Under the pieces are notes generated by a model. That model was given only the letters and a program-made list of their open reading frames with translations, was not told the DNA's origin and made no database searches. From the NCBI GenBank assembly GCA_001244265.2, contig CDLV01000009.1:620001-684000 (forward strand): 64,000 nucleotides of DNA. Reading direction: 5' to 3'. The stretch's first letter is position 1. Each line of letters begins with the position of its first letter. This stretch comes from Microbotryum violaceum (taxonomy: Eukaryota). This document shows, in pieces, positions 2,581 through 18,363 of the stretch. The position numbers were made by a program, and so were the translations under genes.

Positions 2581-4791
2581 ATGTCGGTTGGAAAGCACAC
2601 CATCGATGACAAGAGTCACTCTATCGGCGAAAAAAAAAACGACGTCGACTTCTCCAACCGATTGGTTGCTGGCCCCATGGACTCGCAACCTGTTTCACTC
2701 GTCGAGTACATCCACTGGGCCAAGATCCAGCGAGAGATCGAGGCGCATGACACGACGTAAGTGGGCTCGATTTAAGCGGTTCCGATCAACACGAGAGGCG
2801 ACTCTTGGCCCTGACTGGTGGATCTGGCTCGCCAAAATATCTTGAAACTGACCATCTTTTCGAAACACTCATCCATAGTCAGGTCAAGACCGGCGGCTTG
2901 GGTCCCTTGGGGAAGATGATTGCGCAAAAGATGGACAAGACCGGCGGGAAGGGAATGACTGTCAGTGCTGAGGTTCAGCAGCGCATGGAGGCCGAGCTAG
3001 AGCAGATGCAAGGCTTCTCACCTCATCATCAGGTATGATGAACATCGCAGGTCACCTGGATAATGGCTCTGGGCATCATCGCGCTGACACAAGCGCCCCT
3101 ATTCTTTTTGCGCGTTCGGCCTTCAGGAGCTCTCGAACGCGCGTCGCATGCTGCGTCAAGCCGGATGGGCCACCGTTTTCTTCCTGATCACGACCGATAT
3201 CCTTGGTCCTTACAACTCAGCTTATGCGATTAGTACAGTTGGACTGGTTCCCGGTGTCTGTCTGTGTGAGTATGGTGGACAACGGCGAAGAAGATCGAGA
3301 GGAAGCGGACCCCATGCGCGTTGTTTCCGAGCGGCCCGCGCTGAGCTTGTCCTGGTTGTGGTGGCTTCGCAGATGCATTGTTTGGTGCAGCAGCTGGTTT
3401 CACCGGATACATGATCTGGAAGATGTTTTGCCAACTCGACTCGGTGCGATTCCCCGTTCGACACTATGGCGATTTGGCCGAGCGCATTTACGGCGCCTGG
3501 GCTCGTCACGTGTGCAGTATCCTCGTCACCTTCCAACTCTTGTTTAACTGCGGTATCGTCATCCTCGGAAATGGACAAGCTCTAACTCAAATCGTCAAGG
3601 GCAACATTTGCTTTACCGTCTCGATCGTCATTTGGGCCGTGGTGGGAGCGGTGGTTAGTTTCGTCCGCGAGTTACACGCCTTTTCGGTCTTCGCCAACTT
3701 CTCGGTCTGGCTGAACATCTTGATCATGATCTTGTCGATGGCTTTTGTCGCCCACTCGCCTCCCAACATCGCTGGTGCGATCGCGGCGTATGGCGATTCG
3801 ATCGGCACCGGTCCCGTTGTGATCAAGGCATTCGTCGGCGGTAGCCTGTTCAATCAAGTGAACGGCGCGTTCAACATGGTCTTCGCCTACGGCGGCGGCA
3901 TGATCTTCCCCGAGATTATCGCCGAGATGCGACGACCCTACGACGCCATAAAGGGTATTGCGTGCGCCCAAATCTTCATCTTCACCGTCTACCTCTTCTA
4001 CGGAGTCTTCATCTACTGCTTCCAGGGCCAATATACTTTGCCGCTTGCCTACCAAGGTGTGTCCAAGTACGCTTGGCAATGCATCGGCAACGGCATCTCG
4101 CTCCTTACCGTCACTGTCGCCGCGGGTCTCTATGCCAACGTCGGTCTCAAGATCATCTACACCAACATTGTCGAGAGCGTGTTCAAAGGGCCTTCGCTCA
4201 TGTCAAGGAAGGGTCAAATGATTTGGCTTCCTATGGTCATCATTTGGTGGGTGGTCGCCTGGGTCATCGGAACTGGTCTCCCCGGTTTGGGTGCCCTCAC
4301 CGGCCTCGTCGGAGCCGTCGCCATCTTCCAGCTCTCCTACACGTTCCCGCCTTTCCTCATGCTGGGCCTCACCGTGGGTATGGACGCCTCGCTCGCCGAT
4401 GAGCCCTTTACCACTCCCGGTGTCGCCCCCAAGCGTATCGACACGTGGCGCGACTTCGTAAGTTGCCTGGTTCTCTTGTGCTCAAGCATTTCAAGTGAGC
4501 CCCTCGCTGAGAGCTCATCTGCTTCGCAGTCGCGCTGGAAGCGTGGTTTCGCGGCCGGGGGAAGCAAGCGTCTCGCATACAAGTAAGTCGAACATGTAGG
4601 ACTCATCACCGAAGCTCGTACTTGAGCTCATCCTGCCTTCGATCCGCACGCACTGCAGGATCTTCAACGTGTTCTTCTTCATCGGTGCTCTCGCCATCGG
4701 GGGTCTTGGCATGTGGGGGACGGGAACGGCTCTTGCTCAGACAATCAAGGCCGGAGCAGCTTCTTCTTTCGGGTGTGCCGCACCCGTCTAA
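2581..4791 (+). CDS. Transmembrane amino-acid transporter (Aa_trans/AAAP family), copy 1, apparently intact, multi-exon
   Basis: Many hydrophobic segments; motifs 'LRQAGWATVFFLITTDILGP', 'YGDLAERIYG', 'MVFAYGGGMIFPEIIAEMRRP'; ATG at 2581, TAA at 4789-4791. Confidence 0.9.
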
Positions 4792-5459
4792 GGATGGGGT
4801 TACCGACACCTGCAACCCGCAAATTTTGATGGAGGCGGTATGACTTTGCTGAATCTACTATACTGATCAATCGTTTTTCGATTTACGAGTATATTTCATT
4901 GTGCTATATAATGATTCTGCTTCACCGTGTCCGGCGACCATACTCAGCCCCACACAGCGGTCGAGAGCTAGAGAAGGTACAGGCGGTGGAGCAAAAAGGT
5001 ATCTAACATTAACCTTATCCGCGATAGTAAGTATCAAAGTAGGACCCCACGGCCCCACGACTCGGAGCGTCCATCGTGGACCGGCGGCCGTCGAGAGGCC
5101 GATTTTCCGGTGGGGTGCGCCGGCTCATTTGCTAGTCACGTGAACTGGTCATACGAGTCCAGCAACCGGCCAGTTCCGGTCGCCAAAGTGAGCTCGTAAG
5201 TGTCCATCATGAAGCTCAATGTTACATGTTACTAGTGAGGGTGGGGCCAGGTTCCGGCCAATCCCTGGACCCTAGTCTACTTGTAGTTATTAAAAGCAAT
5301 GTCCCGTCTTACGTCGGTGGGTACACTGGAATGGTTCGCAAGATAATTGTTACAGCGTACGGTGACGGTGTTTGACCGGGCTCTTGCAGGGGCGCTTCTT
5401 ATCGCGAGCGGAAATGGGCAAAAGAAAGGCACGCACACATAACCGCTCTACTCGCTTGT

Positions 5460-5875
5460 CACTTTGGGCTCACATAAGGTCGGCTTTTGGGCCCACGTCG
5501 GAGGCACTCTGGTCCCACGTCGGAGGCACTCTGGTCCCACATCGGAGGCGACTCTGGTCCCACACCGGAGGCGACTCTGGTCCCACATCGGAGGCGACTT
5601 TGGGATCACATCGGAACGGACTTTGGGATCACATCGATGCGGACGTTGGGATCACATCCGAGGTCATTCTTGTACCACGTTCATGGGGACTTTGGTACCA
5701 CATAGTATAGACGCCTGTATCTCTTGCAATGTGTGATGTATCACTCTGGGAACAGTAGTTTGATGCATGTATAGGTCTATAGTACTTCTGGCGGGTGAGA
5801 CGAGGCGGATAATGCAGTAGTTGCTACATCGGGGTTCTTCCCCGCTGTGCCGCTCCGCGCCCGTGTCAGCGGTTA
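5460..5875 (+). repeat. Left inverted repeat: ~20-21-bp tandem units (GACTCTGGTCCCACATCGGAGGC-like) plus a unique inner part
   Basis: About 10 variably degenerate units at ~5460-5700, then sequence matching the reverse complement of 15278-15480. Confidence 0.9.
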
Positions 5876-6218
5876 AACCTTACGCCGATCGTCACGAGGC
5901 AGCAAGCGTAGCTTGCAATAATATCATAGGGTGGAGCAAACGTTTTTTTCTTGCTGACTAGAATACTTATGCGGTAATGGCATAATCACTACATGGGTGA
6001 GCTGTAGTGTTCCTTAGGCCTGCAATCGTTAGCACCCTTATTCGAGAAAATTCAAACATTCGGCGAAAGCCTCGGGGCCGCGCCAAAACTCGCAGGCGCT
6101 CGTCGTTTGACGGGCTACACCGGCAAACTCACGAATGCCCCTGAAAGCAGCTCCTTTCCTCAGAGCTTCACACGCTCACTGGTCTTTCCCCCCACTCTCT
6201 CTTTCTTCTTACACATAA

Positions 6219-8030
6219 CCAGTGGGAACCCGTTAAATTAACGGGAGGACGTAATTCAAAAAATAGCAGGATAATCGAACAGTCTACATGATATCAGCGC
6301 AGAGGTTAAGAAAACACAACACGAAGTACAGCAAAGAAACAAAATCCATTCATCTTACATTCATCGCCGAAACAGCCTGCATGTCGCTTGTTGCCGGACT
6401 TGGCTTCGAACACTCGTGCAATGAGATCCGGACGGTTGCATGCTTTATCGGCCCCGGTGCAGCCTTAATTTCCGGTGAGTCGGGGTCGTACGTCATCGTG
6501 ATCAGCAGCGGAGGCTTTCCATGTTTGACAACGCACGCCATCGCATCCTGGTATCGCTGCGTGATGTCGCGCGGTCTATTCTTGAACGTCGAGCCCAAGG
6601 TCATTGAACGTCCAATTGGGTTCGGGGCCAAGCCGTTGATGCCTTGGGTCGTGGTGAGGTGTAGGTTCTCTTGATGCAACCGGATGTGTAGAGTCGATCG
6701 GTCTCGACTTGGAGTATATCCATAAATCACAGACTCCAGGAAGGGACCGTGGGTGCAATGCGGGATTGAGAAGTACTCGTCGCGTTTGGCAAGTAGTGCA
6801 CAAAGAATGGTGAACGCGAGACTCGCCACCTCGACCCCTTTACTTGACCTTCGTCCTAGGTGTTCAAAAGTTCAGTGTCAGTCTGTGCTTGCGCCTTAGA
6901 CAGAATGGAACATCAGAGAAAGAGCCGAAGACGCGTACGTTCGCCATCACCATCCTCTTCGTCCCCTTCCTCGCGGTCTTCATCCTCATCATCGCGGTCT
7001 TTGTCCTCCTCGTTCGTCATCCAGACCGAGACCGGAAGTACCTCGCGCAATTGGACACCATTGTCGATCTGCTCTCAGTTTCTGGCGATGGGCGGCCCGG
7101 CTTGGTGGAACCCGCAAAGAGGAGTGTTGAGGTGGGAGCTATTTTCCTCTGCGGCGAAGAGTGTTGGGTACCGGAGAGGCATCGCAGACGGATGGAGCGA
7201 GCTGACGACTTGGTACTTGGGTCGACCATCGGGACATCGATGACTGCGCACCTGAACAATAAGTTCTTGCGGTCCACGATCTCCCGTGTTGGTGTCGGAA
7301 TCGCAGATAAGCATCGTCATTTCCGTGCTCGGCGGAGGAAGGTTGTGGGTGCGTCGGTCTCGGCCTGGTGGTAGACAGAGGCGCAGGACCCACTCTTTGG
7401 CCGTATCCCCAGCCTGCGCAAGCTTTGGCCGATGCAAACTCCTTCACAAAGCGGTTTCCGGTCCGCGGACTCGAGCTTGGTCAAAGTAGGCCTTTGTATG
7501 CGACTGCCTGCGCCGTTGAGTCCAAGTCGAGTGTCGGTGGCGGCTGGGTCGATCAGCTACGTTTGAGCAAAGGCTGAGCGTTGATTGACGACAGGGATCT
7601 GGACGCCGAGTCGAGGAGTAAAGCCGATCAAGCACGCGAAACACGCGGGGTCTAGAATGCCCAGTCGAGTCTGGTCAAAGTGAGCAGCGAGCAGAGTCAA
7701 CGACAACGCGTTGTTGTACGACCGGGCGTTCTCGCGCAATGCTATAGCTTCTGTGTGCGTGGGAACATTCTTGCACAGTTCAGCATGTGGGTCTACTGCA
7801 GACGACGGTTGTTGGACGGAGCAACTGACCGCTATCCGAGCCTTCACGTAGCTGTCGACACTCGGGATTGTGCCGGAGAGGGGGAGGTAGCTGCACCTTG
7901 CCCTGCGAAAACGTGGGGCTTGAGGGGTTCGAGCGCGATTCGAGGCCTGCGCGTTCGCCTTTGCGCGCCTTTGCGCGCCTTTGCGCAGGAGGATGTGGTG
8001 GTGGGGTGAGCTCAACGTGCTGCCCATTCT
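6219..8030 (-). mobile_element. Internally deleted, degenerate Helitron nested in the MULE
   Basis: Minus-strand ORF fragments 'LRENARSYNNALSLT' and 'RYQDAMACVVKHGKPPLLITMTYDPDSPEI' resemble the RepHel N-terminus and Rep motif 1. Candidate 3' terminus: hairpin CCCGTTA/TAACGGG (6229-6245), then CTGG|T at 6222-6218. The 5' end was not located. Confidence 0.75.
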
Positions 8031-8701
8031 ACAAAGCTGTACGGGGGGCGCTCATTCGGGTCGCAACACCAAGATCGGTTGAGTTGTTGTTAATCACGCG
8101 CGGGAGCTGATTCTGTTGATCGGAGCGGGACGAAGAGGAGAGTCGAGCAGCGGGGCGCGAGTGTAGCTCGCGCCCGAGACTTACTGACACAGACTCACAC
8201 CGCCAGCGCGCCGCATCACGTGACAGACGACACAGACGTCAGACGTCAGATCGTCAGACACCAGCCCTCGCGTCGCGCGTCAGGCGGAGTTCTGCTGTAG
8301 AAGCAATATCATGCAAAGCCACGCGCTTGCGGTTCATTAAATGCAATATGAGTGGAAGCATTGGTTTATGTCAGCGAAGAAAAGAAAGAAAATACTGGGA
8401 GCGCTGTAGCTTCGTTGGAACGGCGCTGAAAATACAAAAGTCACCATAGGGCTTGTACATGACTTCTGATCCGAACCCCAACACCACACGCAGGTGCGGC
8501 AGACACAACAGTATGCTGGTACATCCACCACAGGCGGCCACCTAGTTAAAGAGCGATTTTAGGTACATTCCTTAACTCACACTTTTTTTTTACTAGTTAG
8601 GGTAAAGTCCTCACGTAAACACTCCTCCCCATCTTAGTCGCGCGGAAATACTATGCATCTCGAGCAAACGACGCCCAGTGAAGGGTTTACCTTCAAGGTA
8701 G

Positions 8702-11700
8702 ATGGCGCCAGTCGCACTCATCATGTCGACAGGAGAAATGAGCCAACTGCTCCAAAACAAAGGGGGCCGACCACCCATCGCGTTGCAGGAACAAAGCTCC
8801 CCAGAGGGATACGCATCGGAAGTTGACTCGGAAGTGGATGAGGATGAGGACAGTCTGCAAGTCTTGGCAGCTTTGGTCCCGGTTCCCTCAAAGTCCTCGA
8901 TATCTAGCCCCTCCGCAGTCTCGGGGCTTTTAATCTCTCCAAAGAGCCGTTCGAGAGACTCCGACGAGGATTCGGCAGACGAGGGTTACTACGGAGTCGA
9001 CGACGACAATTCGGACGAGAAATCAATTGACAACATCTTCTTGTCGTTCCGAGCCAGGAGTAGTGCCGAGAAGATCCTTGACCGGCACACGTACGAGCCC
9101 TCTCGACAGGACAAAGAGTTATTGAACACGACGCGCGAGGCAATTTTCTCAAACATGATCCTCACGACTGCAGAGCACAACGAGCTCCGTCTCAGGCCGC
9201 TTGTTCTCAATTGTCGCAAGCCGAGGTCCGAATGGGAATTTGTACGCAAACTTCCTGTCCTGGAGCTCCCAAAGTTCATGGCTACAGAGGTATGTTGAAG
9301 CTGCATGCTGCGCTGCGTTTTGTTTCGTCCTGTGAACGACTTAACTTTCATTGGTGCGATCTATTAACAGAAGCATGACTGGGCTCCACGCAAATATGAA
9401 CGCTGTCTCGCTGTCGTCGAGCGACCTTACGGTGACGCGCCCTCGTCTACTCATCATCAACATCCGTCGGAGGTGGCAGTGGGGATCGAATGGCGTCCGG
9501 AAGTGCCTATCACCCTTCGAGAAGCTTGGAGTCAACCCGGCGAAGGTCGACCTGTTGCGGAGGTTCTACGGGTTACACATCGTTGCTCGGGGGCCTGTAA
9601 AAGAGTTCGAGTGAAGGATGGCAAACTTGGGTACAAGAAACGAGACAATGACAAGGACCCCGGGAAAACATGCTCTACTCAACTCAAGGTGATCATCCCG
9701 GATAGGAAATCAAAGGAGCTTGGGTTGGGTGGCTGATAAGACTCTCTGTTACCTTCTTCGTCCCTTGTGTAGATCCTCGTTCAGGCCGACGATCTTTCAT
9801 CGGCGCTGGTGTACACCCTCGGCAACCACGAAGGACGCCAACCACCGCCGAACGTCCGACGTCCAGCCCCTTTCATTCGTGCGTTGACGCATCAGGAAGT
9901 CTTTCGGCAGGCCAACACGCCCACGCTTGCATTTCAAAGTGAGTGTGTGCTCCAAGTTTGCACAAGAAGTTTTCACTTCTCAAGACTGACCATCAGTTCC
10001 TTTCTCGATGATGGACTCGATCGTTTCACAGATATGAACCAGCGGATGTCGGTTTGGGAGAAACAGAACGAGATAATTCTCCCGCATTACAGGAAAGTCG
10101 GCGCAAAGCAGCTGCGCAATATGTTCAGGGCAAAAGGTCGACAGAACGCGCAGCATGGATCCGCCTTGTACTCGCTAGCTCGCACGGCTGAGCTGAGACC
10201 GTTCACCCTTCAAAATGCTACGGAGCCCAAGACAAGCCGAGTGGCCTAGTGAGTGATCACGATCTAAGCTGCTTGCCGATCTGATGAGCTAACAAGCGGC
10301 GGAGGTATTTACCCTTGTCAGCTTTCAGCTTTTTAATGAGAAAACGAAGCAGCCGTTGATCTGCGTCCTTGCCTCCCTCCATTCCATCGACGTGTTGATT
10401 TCCTTCGCCACAGTTGGGAACGATTCAGGCGATTGGTCGCGGTTTGTTGGACTTGACTCAAGCTGGCGATACCTAAACGAGAACCGCGCCCCCCTCACCG
10501 CCCTCGTCGCGACTGGCTTGAAAGACAAACTTGCGCTAGGTGAGAGCCCGGGAAGCACTTGAAAGGAAGGTCCGGACGAGTACAAAGACTCATTTCCTCG
10601 CTTATGTAGTGTCTTCTTCAGGTCCTATGCTTCTCTCCAGTGATGTGAAGGCAGATACTCTCGTCATCTACTTGGACACGGTAAAGAGGCTGGTCGAGGA
10701 GCGCGCCGCGATCCTTGTAAGGAGTGCGTTGTAAGATGGGTTGACCAGGGTGTGCTGCGCGTCACGACAGTTTTGAGAGGAGTCGCTCACGCCCTTCTGT
10801 ACCGTCGACGATTTGCATGCGTACTTCAGAAGCTCGTGAGAATGGGCCCAATCTACCCGGCTCGTCCCCCAGGTTGCCAAATCTTCTCCAAAATGCCGAA
10901 TTCATCTTGGAAAATCAGTGGCAACCACCAAATTTCATGATCGACAAATGTCGGACTGAGCTCAACGCCTTGACACTATGTAAGCGCCGCTGCTTGCTAG
11001 GGCTACTATATGAGATGTGCAGACTGCTCTCACGATTTTGAATTCCTGATGATCGTCGTCTTCTGCATCTACGTTACTATAGGGAAAGAAAAGCACAACC
11101 TCAACTTTCACATACGCCTTTGCCAATTCCACGTGGTTCAGGCCATTATTCGGTGGTCGAGTGACAGGAATGACGGCGAAAGGGGCAACACCCTCAAGCC
11201 TTCTCGGATTGCTCGCAAGACGTTGATCAACATTTTGTACGAATTTCGATCCATCATCCAGCGCTTTCGTTTCATACGCACCGAGCATGAAACAGATGCC
11301 GAGGCGACAGCTCGGCGCTCGGCTGAGATCGAAGGGAAGAAGCGGGCGTTCTTTGAAAAATCGGACGCATGGATCGACAAAGAGTTCCGAAGTCGTCGCA
11401 AGCCAGCAGCAAACAAATCAGACGTCACCAGGAAGTCGGAACTGGGTTGCAACAGCCGAGAAGAAGAACAATTACAAGCAAAGAAGGATAACTTTCGGGC
11501 GTATTTCAATGTCAACTGGTTCGTACAAGAGTGGATCGGTGAGTCTTACTCATTCCTTCTTTACGTGTTCTCTCACAGTTTTTTTGGCTCACGCATTTCC
11601 ACAATTCTGAAGAAACATACACAGATGATGGTTTACCCTTGGCGTTTCACGGGAAACCATCAACACCAACAATGTGACTGAACGAGCCTTCAAGACCATC

Positions 11701-14060
11701 CAGCAAGAGCATCTCCACGGCCGAGCCAACAAGAGGTATTGCGTAGCGTCGGACTCAAGGAGCGAATCTCGACGGAAGAGCTGACAATTCTGCTTGCGCT
11801 CTGCACCTGCTAGGATCGACAATATCGTTGTGGTCTTACCCGACAATGCTCTAGTTTATGACATTTGGAAGGACGTATCGAATGCAAAACCGGATCATGT
11901 TCTTCGAGATACTCTGGCAAATTCGATGGACATCTGGGAGCTTGGACAGTTCCGCCCTACCGAAAAGGAGGGCCAGTGGGTGCTTAGTTTACGGTGAGGT
12001 TTTACGGGTACCAGTGCCTCGGCTACCAAGCCCTTACTGAGGCGAGAATGCTTCGGATTTCAAACTCAGATCCATGGATTCATCAATCACTCTCGATACT
12101 CGCGCGCCTTATTGTCCTTGTCGCGCATTCAAGCAAACAGGAAATAAATGCGCTCATCTTTGGGCGTGCGATCTGCTGGTTCACAATGGCGACTACCACA
12201 CAGCGATGAGTGCGTCCGAAGGCTTTGATCACCCTCGTAGCGGCTTCGCAAGCCTACAATCTGACAATTGGTGTGGGATTTCTCTTGCAGACCGCATCAT
12301 GGCAGCAGCAGCAGCGGCAAAAGCAATGTCGGACATGCGGGACGGAACAAAATCAAGCAAGCTCCATGACGCCTCCGTCGAAGCTTTGGTCGACAAAGTA
12401 TTGGACTCTAAAATGCCATCGGCTTTGGAGGACGACAACGAGCCAGACGAGCCCTTGTCAGAGGACGAACTCGACGAACGCGACGAGGTGGATTCGGACG
12501 TCGAGGACGAGGACGAACGCGCTGCCGATATAGCCGATGTTGCTGAATTTCAGCCCAACTGATCAACTGTCAAAGGTGAGCAATGTCTGAACGCCTTGCC
12601 GGAAGGGAGACTTCCGTTCCAATCTGGTCTTGTTCTGTCACACAGGCAGATCAGCCAGGAATCGGCCATTGCAACCCCATCGTAGCAAGAAGACAGCCAA
12701 ACCGAAACTCTCAAAATCGAAGTCAAATTCAGGGGTCACGCTCGAGCACTCGGAGAGAGTCGATGGCAAAGCAACGGCAGCAATTAGACGTTTGATACGC
12801 GACAAGCTCAATCCTGATCAACTTCGTCCAAAAACTTCCAAACACACCATCTTTGAGAACGGAACCACTCAGTTTGGGAAGACCCGTGGACGCCCACGTG
12901 AGACGAAATTTTCCAACAGCTTATCCTCGACCAAAGATCACGCGGCTGCCAAGCGAATGGCGGCCATTCCCGAGGTCATAGACATCGAAGAACTGAGCGA
13001 CGACGAGAGGCCACCATGCCAGCTCGCGCCGTTACAAGAAGGACGTCTTCCACTCGACACCTACGATACAGTTCAGCCGGAGGAGCGCCGAAGCAATGTT
13101 TCCGCCGTCAAGGACATCATCAAGTGTATTCCCAACGAGGTTCAGAAGGTTGATTGGGACGTATTCCTCGACATTCACGCCAGCGACCACGCACCAGGCC
13201 TGAACTTGAGCTCCTTGCGCGAAATGGCCAACGCCAATTTGTGGTTGAGGGCTTCGCACATCGATGCTTTCAGCAGCGCTATCAATCGGTTCCAAGGCCA
13301 ATTGCCTTTCAATGGTCGGTCAAAAGAGGTCCTTGAACTTGAACCAACATGCTACGCACTCTATCTCGAAGGAGGAAAGTGCGCCAAGGGAATTGGAGGC
13401 ACTCGACCAACCGAGCGGCAGCAGGGGGTGAGTTCGGATGGGAGTTCGCGAGCATATCTTTCTATCATTATTGACAGGAGGCCTGCCTCTTTGTTTGCGC
13501 TGCCCCTTTACCAGATTATCCTTTCTCGAACACCAGTTCTACTCTTCCCAACTCATGTCACCAATCATTGAATACTTGTCGAGGCACGCCTTTCGGATTG
13601 TAGATTTCGGGTGTACGACTCTCTTTTTGGCAGGGAGAACATGCGCAAGGAGGCAAACGAAAGTCTCGATGTGAGTTCATCCCCATGACCATCACAAAGC
13701 ACTTTCAAAGGCGCTCAAACTCTGCGCAGCTGCTGACGTCATTCGCCCTTTCTGCCTGCCAGTCAATCAGCACTTTCTTGGAACTCGTGCAGAAGGACCG
13801 ATAGAACGCATCACTGGAGGCATCGATCGACCGACGGTCCCGTACAGAAACTGGAAGCGATTGATTGTCAAAGCGGCGAAGGCCGGCGATCAGCCTCAAC
13901 CGGATAGATATCCTCAACAGACTGATGACAACGCGTGTGGGGCGTTCGTGTGCCGAGCGATGGAAACCCTGGTATGCGCAGCAGTCGCCAAAATGGAACC
14001 CCATTGGAGCTGGGGCCCACAGGTTGAGCCGGGAAGATTTTATTCGGAGCTTTGAGACTA
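8702..14060 (+). pseudogene. Multi-exon MULE transposase + SWIM zinc finger + Ulp1/C48 SUMO-protease domain; nonsense codon in the protease domain
   Basis: DDE motifs 'LDSSW' (D at 10455), 'FMIDK' (D at 10943), 'RLCQFH' (11121), 'NTNNVTE' (E at 11680); SWIM 'CPCRAFKQTGNKCAH' (12113-12156); Ulp1-like 'NH*ILV' (TGA at 13569 where Trp is expected), 'VYDSL', 'PQQTDDNACGAFVC'. Confidence 0.8.
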
Positions 14061-14526
14061 TATGTTGGGTGTCACCCTGCACTCTCGTCTACGATGCGAC
14101 ATGAGCTCGTCTTGGTTTTCGGGCTCGCCGGAGTCTCCAACCGTCTCGTGTGCTACTCGTGATCCAGACAACACAATGGATAGCAGGAAGCCTCATGGCG
14201 ATACACAGCCTGGAGATCACGTCGGTGAGTTCGAATAGGATATTGAAGCTCCTGCATGCTCTATTGTCCTAAGGAGCTCTGCTCTTCTCCTCCTCCTCAT
14301 GTCCCTTGTTGTTTCGGAATGACTCACCCCTGATCTCATCACCCGGCCATTGTTTCGTGCGCAGGCTACAGCAGTGACGACGCGGAAGAAGTCTCACAAC
14401 ATCACAGTAAGTTCCAGGACAGAAAAAGCAACTTCTTAGCTTTGCTCGTGCCCTTGATTCCAGATTGTCACTCAATGATCCTTCCTCTCTTCGTGTCTGC
14501 TCTGCGCCGCTCTAGTTTCCACCCCT

Positions 14527-15041
14527 GTGTCTACGAGATCCGTAACTTTCGAGGGGTCGAGACTTGCAAGGAATGTTTCGTCCTCTGCTGGCACAGTCAT
14601 TATCCAGCACCCACAACCTGGCGGTTTGTCACACGTGGGATCTGTACAAGGAAACAACATGTCGACAGCACGAACTCGTCTTGCATCGGACCAATCCGAT
14701 TCGCCCCTAAACCGACCAACGCTCGCCTTTCCTTCATTTTCGCCAGTATTCGCCACGCGCGATATCGAACACCTACCAAAGAAATGCAAGTACTCTGAGG
14801 TTCCTCAAGAGAGTAGCCCTTCCGCTGTTGTTACTCCCAGCAAGCGGCGTCATTCGGCTGCGGAAAGCGTGACCCCGAGCTCCAGTCGGCGGAAAGCTTG
14901 CTCGCAATGTCGAGACCGAAAGTTGAAGTGTGATCTAGGTCATCCATGCTCGAAGTAGGTACAGTCTAGTATTTCATCATACCAAGAAAGAGCTGACAAC
15001 TGGTTTGTTCATTTTGAGCAGCTGCACTAAGAAAAGGAGAG
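14527..15041 (+). CDS. Zn(II)2Cys6 (Gal4-type) cluster-encoding exons inside the MULE; possibly the C-terminus of the transposase/protease gene
   Basis: 'RRKACSQCRDRKLKCDLGHPCS' + intron (14955-15020) + 'NCTKKRR'; five of the six cysteines are visible. Confidence 0.7.
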
Positions 15042-15277
15042 GTAAAGCGAGCCAGGTTTTTACATGTGAATACGTTTAAATATCGTTCAACTGCAATGAT
15101 CATACAAGCAAAAGTCCGCCGATGTCGAAGCGTGACTTATTAGAATCTGTATCTTCGCTCGATCTCTATAAACTGTTCTTCATGGATGAGAGAAGCGAGG
15201 GACCGGTGCCAATTCTGGTCTAATCCGAGTCGGCGCAATCACGTTCGGGAGTGTCGGCCTTGGCGGTTCGGGCGCCG

Positions 15278-15603
15278 GACCGCTGACACCACGGGCGCGG
15301 AGAGGCCAGGCGGGGCAGAATATCGATGTAGTAGCTACTGCTTCGTCCGCTTCGTCTCACCGGCCAGAAGTACTATAGACCTATACATGCATCAAACTAC
15401 TGTTCCCAGAGTGATACATCACACATTGCAAGAGATACAGACGTCTATACTATGTGGTACCAAAGTCCCCATGAACGTGGTACAAGAATGACCTCGGATG
15501 TGATCCCAAAGTCCGCTCCGATGTGATCCCAAAGTCGCCTCCGATGTGGGACCAGAGTCGCCTCCGATGTAGGACCACAGTTGCCATCTTCGGGACCAAA
15601 GTG
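15278..15603 (-). repeat. Right inverted repeat of the MULE (fewer tandem units than the left)
   Basis: Reverse complement of 5460-5875. Confidence 0.9.
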
Positions 15604-15984
15604 CCCTGCTATTCGCGGGATTAACCTAATTCCGAAAAGAAACGGGCCGGCGCGCTCACATCGTGCGCGATCGACTTCTCTGGCTGGCAATCTTCGACGA
15701 TCCTAGCGTTCTCTCCACACTTTTCTTCAAGGTGACTCGGTACATGAGTGGATGAGACGGATTTCTAGTGACCGATCTATAGCTATCTATAGGCGCGTAC
15801 CCACGTGAAACCCACTTATCTGTTGTCTTCTAGTACCAAAGCCCACCTCCGATTGCCCCTTACTCTCCTTCTCGGTCGCCCCTTTCACCATCAGACTTTA
15901 GGCTTGCTTTGCTCGACTCATCATCACCCCTCGCCTGTTCTTCTTCCTCGTTATTCAATCTCCACTCAAGGAGCACTTCACACC

Positions 15985-18363
15985 ATGCACGAGAAATCCG
16001 ACAACGGCTCAATGGACGAAAAAAATGTCACGGTGAATGCCTACATCGCCGCCCCCGCCGACGCGCACCCTGTCTCACTCGTTGAATACCTCCACTGGGC
16101 CAAACTCCAACGCGAGATCGAAGCTGAGGATACGACGTGAGTATACTTCTGTATCTTGAAACTTCCTTTCACCGGGCTGGTAGGCGTACCAAACCCGTCA
16201 TGCCTACTAGTCAGGGCAGCCCGGGCTTGCGATTCGCGCGGCAAACGGCGCGCTGTGCCGTATGTCGGGGATATCGCGAGCGCGACTCGGCTCGGGATTC
16301 GTTAGGTTTACAAATGCCGCTTTGCTGACCGGGCCATGATCTACTCGACTACACCCTCAAATTCATTTATCCCGGTCAAGACTGGTGGTCTCGGACCTCT
16401 AGGAAAAGTCATCGCCAAGCAAATGGAAAAGAAGGGTGACGCACCAGGAATCGATGACGAGGCGCATCGCCGAATGGAAGGCGAATTGGAACAAATGCAA
16501 GGCCTCTCTGACCATCAAACCGTGAGTAAATACACTGTCTACTATGCATTTGATCCTGGTGTTTACACTGGCGCCATTAGGCTAGATTGCTAACGCTAGC
16601 GACTCTCGGATCCCCATCGCGCGTGCGATCAAAATAGGAGCTCTCAAACGCACGTCGTTTGCTGCGACAAGCAGGATGGGCCACCGGTTTCTTTGTCATT
16701 ACAGCGGACATACTTGGACCCTTCAATGCACCTTTTGCGATTAGTACAATTGGTCTGGCTCCCGGAATCTGTCTCTGTGAGTAACAAGGGAAAGAGGTCG
16801 AGAATGAGGAGATGTTCAACTGCGCAATAGTGTTCCACCGGCGGCGTTGCTGATTCTGAGTTGGCTGGGAACCTCGCAGATACGCTTTTCGGTCTTGCAG
16901 CTGGCTTTACTGGGTTCATGATCTGGAAGATCTTCTGCCAGCTCGATTCTGTGCGATTCCCGGTGAAAAGCACACCGTGAGTCTTTCCGTTGCCGCGGTC
17001 TCACCCGTCTATAACAAACTCCTGAAGATTCCTCACCTTCACTCAGTACGGTCCCTGAGCTCGCCATGTCTGTAACGTGCTTGTTACCGTCCAACTTCTT
17101 TTCAGCTGCGCCATTGTCATTCTCGGTAACGGAGGCGGCCTGTCCCAAATCGTTCAAGGAAAGCTCTGCTTCACGATCACAGTTTTGATCTGGGCTGTTG
17201 TCGGTGCTGCCATCAGCATGGTCCGAGAACTGCACATGTTCTCGGTGTTTGCAGACTTTTCCATGTGGCTCAACGTCCTGATCATGATCTTGTCGATGGC
17301 CTTTGTCGCGCACTCGCCTCCCAACATCGCTGGTGCGATCGCGGCGTACGGCGATTCGATCGGCACCGGACCCGTCGCTATCAAGGCCATCGTAGGTGGC
17401 TCCCTCTTCAACCAGAACAACGGCGCGTTCAACATGGTCTTCCTATGGAGGTAGCATGATTTTCCCTGAAATCATCGCCGAGATGCGACGACCCTACGAC
17501 GCCATCAAAGGTATTGCGTGCGCCCAAATCTTCGTCTTCACCGTCTATCTCTTCTACGGAATCTTCATCCACTGCTTCCAGGGCCAATATACCTTGCCGC
17601 TTGCCTACCAAGGTGCTGCCAAGTACGCTTGGCAATGCGTCGGAAATGGAATCGCACTCGCCACCGTAACCGTTGCCGCTGGACTTTACGCAAATGTCGG
17701 TCTCAAGGTCGTCTATTCCAACATCGTCGAGGGTCTCTTCAAGGGTTCTTCGCTCATGACGAGGAAGGGCCAAATGATTTATCCCCATGCTCATCGTTTG
17801 GTGGACCTTGGCTTGTGTAATCGGAACGGGATTGCCGGGTCTCGGCGCCCTGACTGGTCTCGTCGGTGCCGTCGCGATCTTCCATTTTACGTACACGTTC
17901 CCTCCGCTCCTAATCCTCGGTCTCACGATGGGTATCGACGTCTCTCTGGCTGATGAGCCTTTCACGACTCCTGGCGTTGCCCCCAAGCGCATCGACAGCT
18001 GGAGCAACTTTGTGAGTTTTCCAAACCGTCGCAAGCAAAGCTCTGCTCATTTATGAAGAGTACTGGACCGACATTGCTTGGCATCTCTCTCTCTCTCTAC
18101 AGTCTCGCTGGAAGCGTGGTTTGCTCGCCGGTGGCAACAAGCGTCTCATCTTCAAGTGAGCCTCACAATCAGTGATTCCTTTTCCTTCGACCCCAGGCTT
18201 AGAGACTGATCGACGCCGCATCGCGCCAAACAGACTTTTCAACCTCGTCTTCTTCATTGGAGCCCTCGGAACCGGAGGTCTCAGCATGTGGGGTACGGGA
18301 ACGGCTCTTGCTCAAACGATCAAGGCCGGTGCAGCTTCCTCGTTCGGATGTGCTGCTCCCGTG
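15985..18363 (+). pseudogene. Amino-acid transporter copy 2 (tandem paralogue of 2581-4791), disrupted
   Basis: Same exon layout as copy 1, but with frameshifts near 17444 and 17780, a rearranged segment plus TGG>TGA near 16965-17060, and loss of the copy-1 stop codon. Confidence 0.85.

Follow-up and report, generated by a model that had tools for sequence, protein, structure and literature searches.

A predicted zinc cluster at the C-terminus of an Ulp1-bearing transposase in a probable Mutator family of Microbotryum

A 64,000-nucleotide stretch of Microbotryum violaceum DNA (assembly GCA_001244265.2, contig CDLV01000009.1, positions 620,001 to 684,000 of the forward strand; hereafter the window, numbered from its first letter) contains, at 5428–15634, what is very probably a cut-and-paste DNA transposon of the Mutator superfamily (Mutator-like element, MULE), a defective copy of an autonomous element from a Microbotryum-type basidiomycete. 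The window copy is an ordinary dead MULE-Ulp1 element; what is undescribed is a zinc cluster of the Gal4 type (Zn2Cys6) at the C-terminus, found in its family and in at least one distant lineage. While the fusion of a MULE core, a SWIM finger and a C48 protease is already known, the Zn2Cys6 tail on such a transposase looks new.

The plus strand from 8702 reads as a chain of open reading frames (ORFs), which we joined into one gene model with 17 introns, all GT..AG and 67–140 nt long; N was placed at two base losses and X at stops. Residues 1–1623 of this model align with residues 1–1648 of the family protein P0002 at 92.7% over the full length and, in tblastn searches, P0002 and P0003 map on 8702–15076 in order and without a gap. 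An earlier note on this DNA had described a single co-oriented, intron-rich unit in which a MULE core, a SWIM finger, an acidic/basic linker, an Ulp1-type protease and a Zn2Cys6 finger follow each other. In good agreement with this description, all of the reported domains are present, co-oriented and in that order. The span that had been given for the element, 8702–15041, was too short: the reading frame ends at 15079, and the element is taken here as 5428–15634. The gene and its parts are as follows:

8702–15079, plus strand: transposase gene, 18 exons, 17 introns, 1623 codons read through defects
9590–9840, plus strand: N-terminal Cys/His-rich segment (C.G.C ... C ... H)
10455–11682, plus strand: MULE catalytic core (D1 10455–10457, D2 10943–10945, CQFH 11121–11132, E 11680–11682)
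12113–12157, plus strand: SWIM zinc finger CPCRAFKQTGNKCAH (CxCx9CxH)
13515–14224, plus strand: Ulp1/C48 protease core (His 13566–13568, Asp 13617–13619, Gln 13918–13920, Cys 13936–13938)
14899–15067, plus strand: C-terminal Zn2Cys6, CSQCRDRKLKCDLGHPCS / NCTKKRRGKASQVFTC, split by intron 14955–15021; stop codon 15077–15079

We compared contigs of four public sequencing runs (X10, X17, X18 and X19, with sparse cover by X18) with positions 4800–16300. Spliced X19 contigs back seven of the introns (10980–11082, 12210–12290, 12576–12645, 13428–13514, 13671–13762, 14225–14364 and 14407–14515), and at these joints the depth in X10, X17 and X18 is 0. Since X19 has GT..AG joints with no depth in the DNA run X10, we infer that it is an RNA run. 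The X19 joints 14216>14360 and 14406>14516 correspond to introns 14225–14364 and 14407–14515; as the contigs and the exon model agree, a 42-nt mini-exon and the Zn2Cys6 exon are spliced in frame behind the protease exons. This in-frame junction supports the earlier proposal of a single protein that includes the Zn2Cys6 part.

The last two exons encode CSQCRDRKLKCDLGHPCS and then NCTKKRRGKASQVFTC, followed by three residues and the stop. The Pfam profile Zn_clus (PF00172, cut-off 21 bits) is reached by the window exon (22.0 bits) as well as by P0002 (27.1 bits) and P0006 (27.3 bits), in line with the earlier assignment of a Gal4-type finger just ahead of the right repeat. The six-Cys form is a prediction, as Cys5 and Cys6 would require the removal of intron 14955–15021. 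Among solved structures, a PDB search by sequence gave a weak match at best (E 0.13), to the zinc cluster of CBF3 subunit B (7k7g_M); an Atlas search with the protease-to-Zn2Cys6 part gave no usable match.

The motif is not confined to the closest copies. Among 160 proteins, C..C.{6}C was found at the C-terminal end of four family members and of three distant proteins, P0010, P0011 and P0016, which are 58–72% identical to each other and 26–28% identical to P0002, and of which P0011 carries C48 as well. All three end in AC.PCRKSK..C....PC and are cut two residues after Cys4: P0010 runs into apparent intron sequence after the half-cluster, and the P0011 and P0016 models stop there. The family models P0003 and P0005 stop at the same point, with the intron read through. 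P0011, P0016 and P0005 have sub-threshold Zn_clus matches (about 15 bits) over profile positions 1–22, at their last residues. The apparently shared intron position points to a common origin of the half-clusters in this lineage and in the window family and, as far as such sequence comparisons go, argues that Zn2Cys6 has long been a conserved part of the protein and was not captured recently. The earlier note had called the domain captured; a recent pickup from a host gene is unlikely, given that a lineage at 26–28% identity has the same half-cluster in the same place and that no host gene from which the Zn2Cys6 exon might stem came up in a search, all 5 protein matches being copies of the element, which by itself is weak evidence. 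No natural transposase with Zn2Cys6 is reported in the literature searched, the scope of which excluded most subscription journals and Repbase Reports.

The catalytic core has its motifs at 10455 (D1, 'DSSWR'), 10937 (D2, 'MIDK'), 11121 ('CQFH') and 11662 (E, 'NTNNVTE'). In a MAFFT alignment DSSWR..NENRAP, MIDK, RLCQFH, NTNN.TE.AFK and the SWIM pattern CxC...CxH are common to the family and to relatives that pass Pfam MULE (PF10551), and the D2–CxxH block aligns with these relatives column for column. Across 30 sequences the D, D and E of the core are invariant or nearly so, with D215, K216, F242, H243 and E385 (P0007 numbering) invariant. PF10551 scores are 44 bits for P0022, 46 for P0032, 35.5 for P0026, 34.6 for P0046 and 32.3 for P0158, and phmmer E values to the relatives that pass the profile range from 2e-27 to 8e-20; P0053, at 26.4 bits, falls below the cut-off and shares the core motifs. 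The D-D-CxxH-E core assigned earlier is thus corroborated by motif alignment with Pfam-positive relatives, and the family has the DDE core and C/DxxH motif, homologous to PF10551, that are expected of a Mutator transposase.

Searching with a 691-residue part of P0002 (HMMER) yielded 177 relatives at E<=0.001. In 31 of the long relatives that were scanned, Pfam found C48 in 19, SWIM in 6, MULE in 5 (4 of them above the cut-off), and Zn_clus and KDZ in none. In the Atlas, residues 330–900 of P0002 adjoin clusters with MULE, SWIM and ZSWIM1-3 RNaseH-like domains (scores 0.91–0.94). The SWIM finger is likewise confirmed by its CxCx9CxH pattern at 12113 and by relatives: the window ORF reaches 14.1 of the 19.6 bits that Pfam SWIM requires, while 6 of the 31 pass. 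In the AlphaFold model of P0007, a protein of the sister Microbotryum family, the mean predicted local distance difference test score (pLDDT) is 57.5, with core blocks mostly at 65–95; the model matches the P-element and Hermes transposases weakly (E ~1e-3), and no solved transposase of the Mutator superfamily is among the fold matches listed. The Cys/His segment at 9590–9840 is conserved in the consensus of the 30 sequences and has no Pfam match; it may be a WRKY/FAR1-type DNA-binding finger.

The protease is well supported in the fuller copies. Pfam Peptidase_C48 (PF02902, cut-off 20.7 bits) scores 28.4 bits on P0001, 31.0 on P0002, 29.7 on P0003, 24.1 on P0005 and 29.9 on P0156, and 17 bits, under the cut-off, on the window ORF. 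In P0001–P0005 the HW pair, an Asp 17 residues on and QQTDGNAC with a Gln–Cys spacing of 6 stand in the canonical order and spacing of Ulp1, and HW, YDS and PQQ.D...CG are present in the 30-sequence consensus. The fold was assessed on the sister protein P0007 rather than on the window family, in a domain block with pLDDT mostly 63–86: the modelled protease matches yeast Ulp1 (2hl9; E 1.4e-6, TM score 0.64) and human SENP5 (TM score 0.70) in Foldseek, human SENP1 and SENP2, and SENP7 and NEDP1 as well. There are 36 fold matches at E<=0.001, and most among the matches listed are SUMO or NEDD8 proteases. The Ulp1-type His-Asp-Cys protease of the earlier note therefore stands, with C48 above the cut-off in the fuller copies. 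Its pairing with a MULE is not new, being both in print for plants and animals and evident from the 19 C48-positive relatives: the passage of PMC2836005 that treats the subject, citing Hoen 2006 and van Leeuwen 2007, places Ulp1 in Mutator elements of hydra, lancelet, Arabidopsis, maize, rice and melon, and a survey of fungal cut-and-paste elements uses 'C48 protease' as an accessory-domain filter (PMC5751038).

The family is multicopy. With the 226-residue frame at 11001–11681 as query, three named Microbotryum species yield six annotated proteins at 48–95% identity; five of the six are 1268–1700 residues long. These five long copies, together with fragments, are 79–95% identical to the window ORF. 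The long copies align end to end with the window, and four gene models lie on four contigs of one species. X10 word depth, a rough measure, is about 123 in the element body as against about 19–24 in the flanks. Several copies thus sit at different loci, with contigs at the element ends running into different flanks, as expected of a mobile element. Both extra parts are kept by other copies: C48 is found at E<=0.01 in four of the five long models (all but P0006), and Zn_clus is reached in P0002, P0003 and P0006, while P0005 has a Zn_clus match of 15.7 bits, below threshold, and the P0001 model ends before the Zn2Cys6 exon. None of the outcomes named in the earlier note as fatal to its reading (copies without the extra parts, no profile support, domains from unrelated nested insertions) was observed.

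Internal-deletion derivatives of the family were seen as well: one X17 contig joins 9609 to 15072, and P0018, a 167-residue gene model, consists of an N-terminal piece joined to a decayed Zn2Cys6 exon. In one X19 contig the inner left repeat runs from 5842 straight on to 9046; the ends of this joint are non-canonical, and either a deletion copy or an artefact of alignment at a micro-inversion described below may explain it. The public models P0001–P0006 keep intron sequence, e.g. in the protease and in the stretch from D2 to CxxH, and several of them end inside the zinc cluster; for this reason automatic annotation hides the MULE and Zn_clus domains.

The ends of the element were set by contig breaks. 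A single-copy flank contig of X10 ends at 5457, and at 15633/15634 X19 contigs part from the window and continue into two or more different flanks. The end features are:

5420–5427, no strand: candidate left target-site duplication AAAAGAAA, with the same 8-mer at 15635–15642, directly outside both ends
5428–5873, plus strand: left terminal inverted repeat, with a 34-nt terminus, 11 tandem units of 22–23 bp (5462–5712) and an inner conserved part
15279–15634, minus strand: right terminal inverted repeat, with 5 clean 23-bp units (reverse-strand starts 15557–15465)
15635–15642, no strand: candidate right target-site duplication AAAAGAAA, pairing with 5420–5427

When the window is compared with itself, 5570–5873 and 15585–15279 form an inverted match (89.6% identical over 307 bp, with an E value of 5e-115). 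In the right repeat, two outer degenerate units look as though they add to the five clean ones. Repeat arms of about 350–450 bp with subterminal tandem units, 11 on the left and 5–7 on the right, are as expected of a MULE. The 8-bp AAAAGAAA repeat was read at one copy only, and it adjoins ends that were set independently by contig breaks and loose ends; a shared word of at least 8 letters occurred in 40 of 5000 random 30-mer pairs from the window. Among the contigs of the four runs, none bridges an empty site.

The earlier note had further suggested that the zinc cluster might bind the element's own ends, on the grounds that each of their 21-bp tandem units contains CGG. The units measure 22–23 bp, and CGG is present in 8 of the 11 left units and 2 of the 5 clean right ones. 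The idea is left without support, because the invariant part common to all units is TGG..CAC rather than CGG and because the ends are not enriched in CGG/CCG (44 and 34 per kb, compared with 38.7 per kb window-wide); CGG density, for its part, would neither support nor exclude such binding. The conserved N-terminal Cys/His segment could just as well be the part that binds the ends.

This copy is dead, with three in-frame stops and two 1-base losses:

9042–9068, no strand: 27-bp in-frame micro-inversion between 7-bp inverted repeats (9035–9041 and 9069–9075)
11639–11642 (near 11641), plus strand: one base lost, 'DDGLPL|GVSRET', just before the catalytic Glu
12560–12562, plus strand: in-frame TGA inside an RNA-supported exon
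13569–13571, plus strand: in-frame stop (THVTNH*), replacing the Trp after the catalytic His
13763–13785 (near 13784), plus strand: one base lost at the start of exon 15
14053–14055, plus strand: in-frame stop (YSEL*DYML), relative to other copies

The micro-inversion, flanked by ATCTTCT and AGAAGAT, changes about 10 residues; other copies read SALLLARNDKK there, which the window encodes on its minus strand. At 11639–11642 the frame shifts within an exon compared with all five long copies, and the TGA at 12560 gives PN*STVKG where P0003 has PICSTVKG. Two X19 contigs have one extra letter at 13763–13785 relative to the window, and the model regains its frame at the start of exon 15 only if a placeholder is put there. 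Two of the stops and one of the base losses thus fall in the protease part.

As to what the tail means, a bolder reading, to which we give somewhat less than even odds, is a deep basidiomycete Mutator clade that fixed Zn2Cys6 as a permanent C-terminal module of its transposase beside the SUMO protease, where it would steer the protein to CGG-type sites, either its own ends or promoter-like targets. A different origin, which we consider unlikely, is Pack-MULE-style transduplication: the Zn2Cys6 exons would be the 5' part of a host transcription-factor gene, carried between the transposase gene and the right end, co-transcribed by read-through and without function for the element. The segment does resemble the N-terminus of a zinc-cluster factor (a Met, a stretch of about 90 residues rich in S and P, then RRKACSQCR), the protein ends three residues after Cys6 with neither linker nor dimerisation region, the Cys5–Cys6 spacing in the tail is atypical, and the sister-family models P0007 and P0157 are without the motif. 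Against such a fragment, a search for host proteins that begin in this way returned element copies (five of five matches), splicing joins the exon in frame to those of the protease, and P0010, P0011 and P0016, at 26–28% identity, have the same half-cluster, likewise C-terminal and cut at the same point.

Two further rivals concern the element as a whole. Zisupton elements are multi-exon, occur in fungi, make 8-bp duplications and have transposases with SWIM and SUMO-protease parts. A place for the window element in Zisupton/KDZ instead of Mutator would suit its candidate 8-bp duplication and its multi-exon gene for more than 1400 residues in a basidiomycete. The relevant passages give 8 bp for Zisupton duplications (PMC12730594) and describe the group as multi-exonic, with proteins of up to 1400 aa, and defined by the KDZ domain PF18758 (PMC9297572). 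Scans of 43 proteins at E<=0.01 or 0.001 led us to reject this placement, which we regard as very improbable: PF18758 is found in none of the 6 family proteins, none of the 31 long relatives and none of 6 others (P0018 and P0156–P0160), whereas Pfam MULE is matched by 6 relatives and the Atlas neighbours are MULE clusters. What is shared with Zisupton is a large multi-exon fungal transposase, along with the candidate 8-bp duplication, but the window family is without PF18758 and its core is MULE-type. FAR1-type factors have, in order, a DNA-binding finger, a MULE core and SWIM. A domesticated host gene, i.e. an FHY3/FAR1-like transposase-derived factor with an added Zn2Cys6, would account for the same order of finger, core and SWIM here and for gene models annotated in three species. 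Such a gene would, however, have to be squared with inverted ends that carry subterminal repeats and a flanking 8-bp repeat, four copies on separate contigs of one species, contigs that leave the ends into different flanks, deletion derivatives, and the stops and frameshifts of the window copy; we give this explanation the least credence of all.

Several observations weigh against our own reading of a Mutator element with a functional zinc-cluster tail. Mutator target duplications are 9–11 bp long (8–11 bp elsewhere); the candidate duplication, at 8 bp, is short, and its 8-mer is A-rich. The inverted arms are only 89.6% alike, and the outermost 30 nt or so of the two ends correspond poorly. 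Pfam MULE has no match at E<=0.01 on the family's own proteins, nor on the window ORFs, so that the assignment to Mutator is by transitive homology and by motifs; the RNA-supported intron 10980–11082, wrongly kept in gene models as 20-odd residues between D2 and CxxH, helps to explain the missing direct match. Run X19 is listed only as 'RNA?', its nature being deduced from the joints, and a splice at the last intron, 14955–15021, is not seen among the 15 of 48 joints listed. The Zn2Cys6 spacing is CX2CX6CX5-12CX2CX6-8C, with a usual last loop of 6–8 residues, whereas the Cys5–Cys6 loop here has 13, and Pfam aligns profile positions 1–27 of 39. The lack of a Zn motif in the models of the sister Microbotryum family (P0007, P0157) may reflect loss or mis-annotation.

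The window copy is itself interrupted:

6216–8602, minus strand: nested, unrelated high-copy repeat with a Helitron-like Rep fragment, 2387 bp, TAA at both junctions

The segment is missing from other copies, as X17 and X10 contigs link 6215 directly to 8603, jumping 2387 bp. Its X10 word depth (1567–3699, compared with 123 in the MULE body), some 13–30 times that of the surrounding element, marks it as a different repeat nested in this copy. The ORF at 6350–6871 on the minus strand matches Pfam Helitron_like_N (E 3.5e-10), and no canonical Helitron pair of 5'-TC and CTRR-3' ends could be placed on 6216–8602. The insert sits about 100 bp upstream of the transposase start codon.

On either side of the element, at about 2600–4600 and about 15986–18100, lies an amino-acid transporter gene; the two are paralogues and are encoded on the same strand. 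The left one matches Pfam Aa_trans, and the two are 72–81% identical at the nucleotide level over the matched pieces. The transposon thus lies in the spacer between tandem transporter genes, about 350 bp upstream of the likely ATG of the right one. The composition of the window is fungal-like (49–61% G+C per kb).

In intact members of the family the spliced gene would specify a single protein some 1620 residues long, in which a Cys/His finger at the N-terminus is followed by a DDE core of the RNase-H type (with CxxH), SWIM, an acidic/basic linker, Ulp1 and Zn2Cys6. Such a transposase would bind the subterminal repeats, cut the ends and insert with an 8-bp duplication; the substrates of its protease may be host factors of silencing or repair that are conjugated to SUMO-like proteins, and Zn2Cys6 would serve as a conserved extra DNA-binding module that aids end recognition or target choice. 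As regards the protease, a link to repair or to the ubiquitin/SUMO pathway is suggested in a passage of the Ginger paper.

The nearest known systems each share part of this layout. According to PMC2836005, Kaonashi/KI-MULE of Arabidopsis, CUMULE of melon and MuDR of hydra and lancelet likewise combine a Mutator transposase with C48/Ulp1 and have long inverted ends; the window element differs from these in residing in a basidiomycete, in having one 18-exon reading frame with SWIM, and in the added C-terminal Zn2Cys6. Closer by are basidiomycete MULE-SWIM-C48 proteins of Exidia glandulosa (EXIGLDRAFT_837845), Mycena metata and Lentinus brumalis, which are 1500–2200 residues long, about 30% identical in the core and have the same domain order, with both Pfam MULE and C48 in the Exidia protein P0158; these models have no Zn2Cys6 motif and are annotated as hypothetical, SWIM-type-domain or ubiquitin-like-protease proteins. 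With Gal4-type factors the window tail shares a predicted six-Cys pattern with basic residues, RRKAC..CR.RK.KCD, that passes Zn_clus, but its finger lies at the extreme C-terminus of a transposase, with a 13-residue Cys5–Cys6 loop and without linker, coiled coil or middle homology region. In engineered Gal4-piggyBac (PMC3413120), a zinc cluster was joined to a transposase of another superfamily to direct insertion; that fusion is man-made, while the one in the window is natural and its targeting role putative.

Transposases have repeatedly given DNA-binding domains to transcription factors or borrowed such domains from them, as in WRKY/GCM1, BED and THAP, and the zinc-cluster factors form the largest fungal transcription-factor family. 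If the bolder reading of the tail is true, this would be the first natural link of a transposase to that family and a natural counterpart of engineered Gal4-transposase targeting. More immediately, basidiomycete 'hypothetical proteins' of 1500–2200 residues with C48 or Zn_clus, whose gene models keep introns and stop inside the zinc cluster, are transposon genes and not host SUMO proteases or regulators. A conserved Zn2Cys6 tail would offer a testable case of a mobile element gaining a host-type DNA reader, and such a case would bear on whether the reader governs end recognition or the choice of insertion site.

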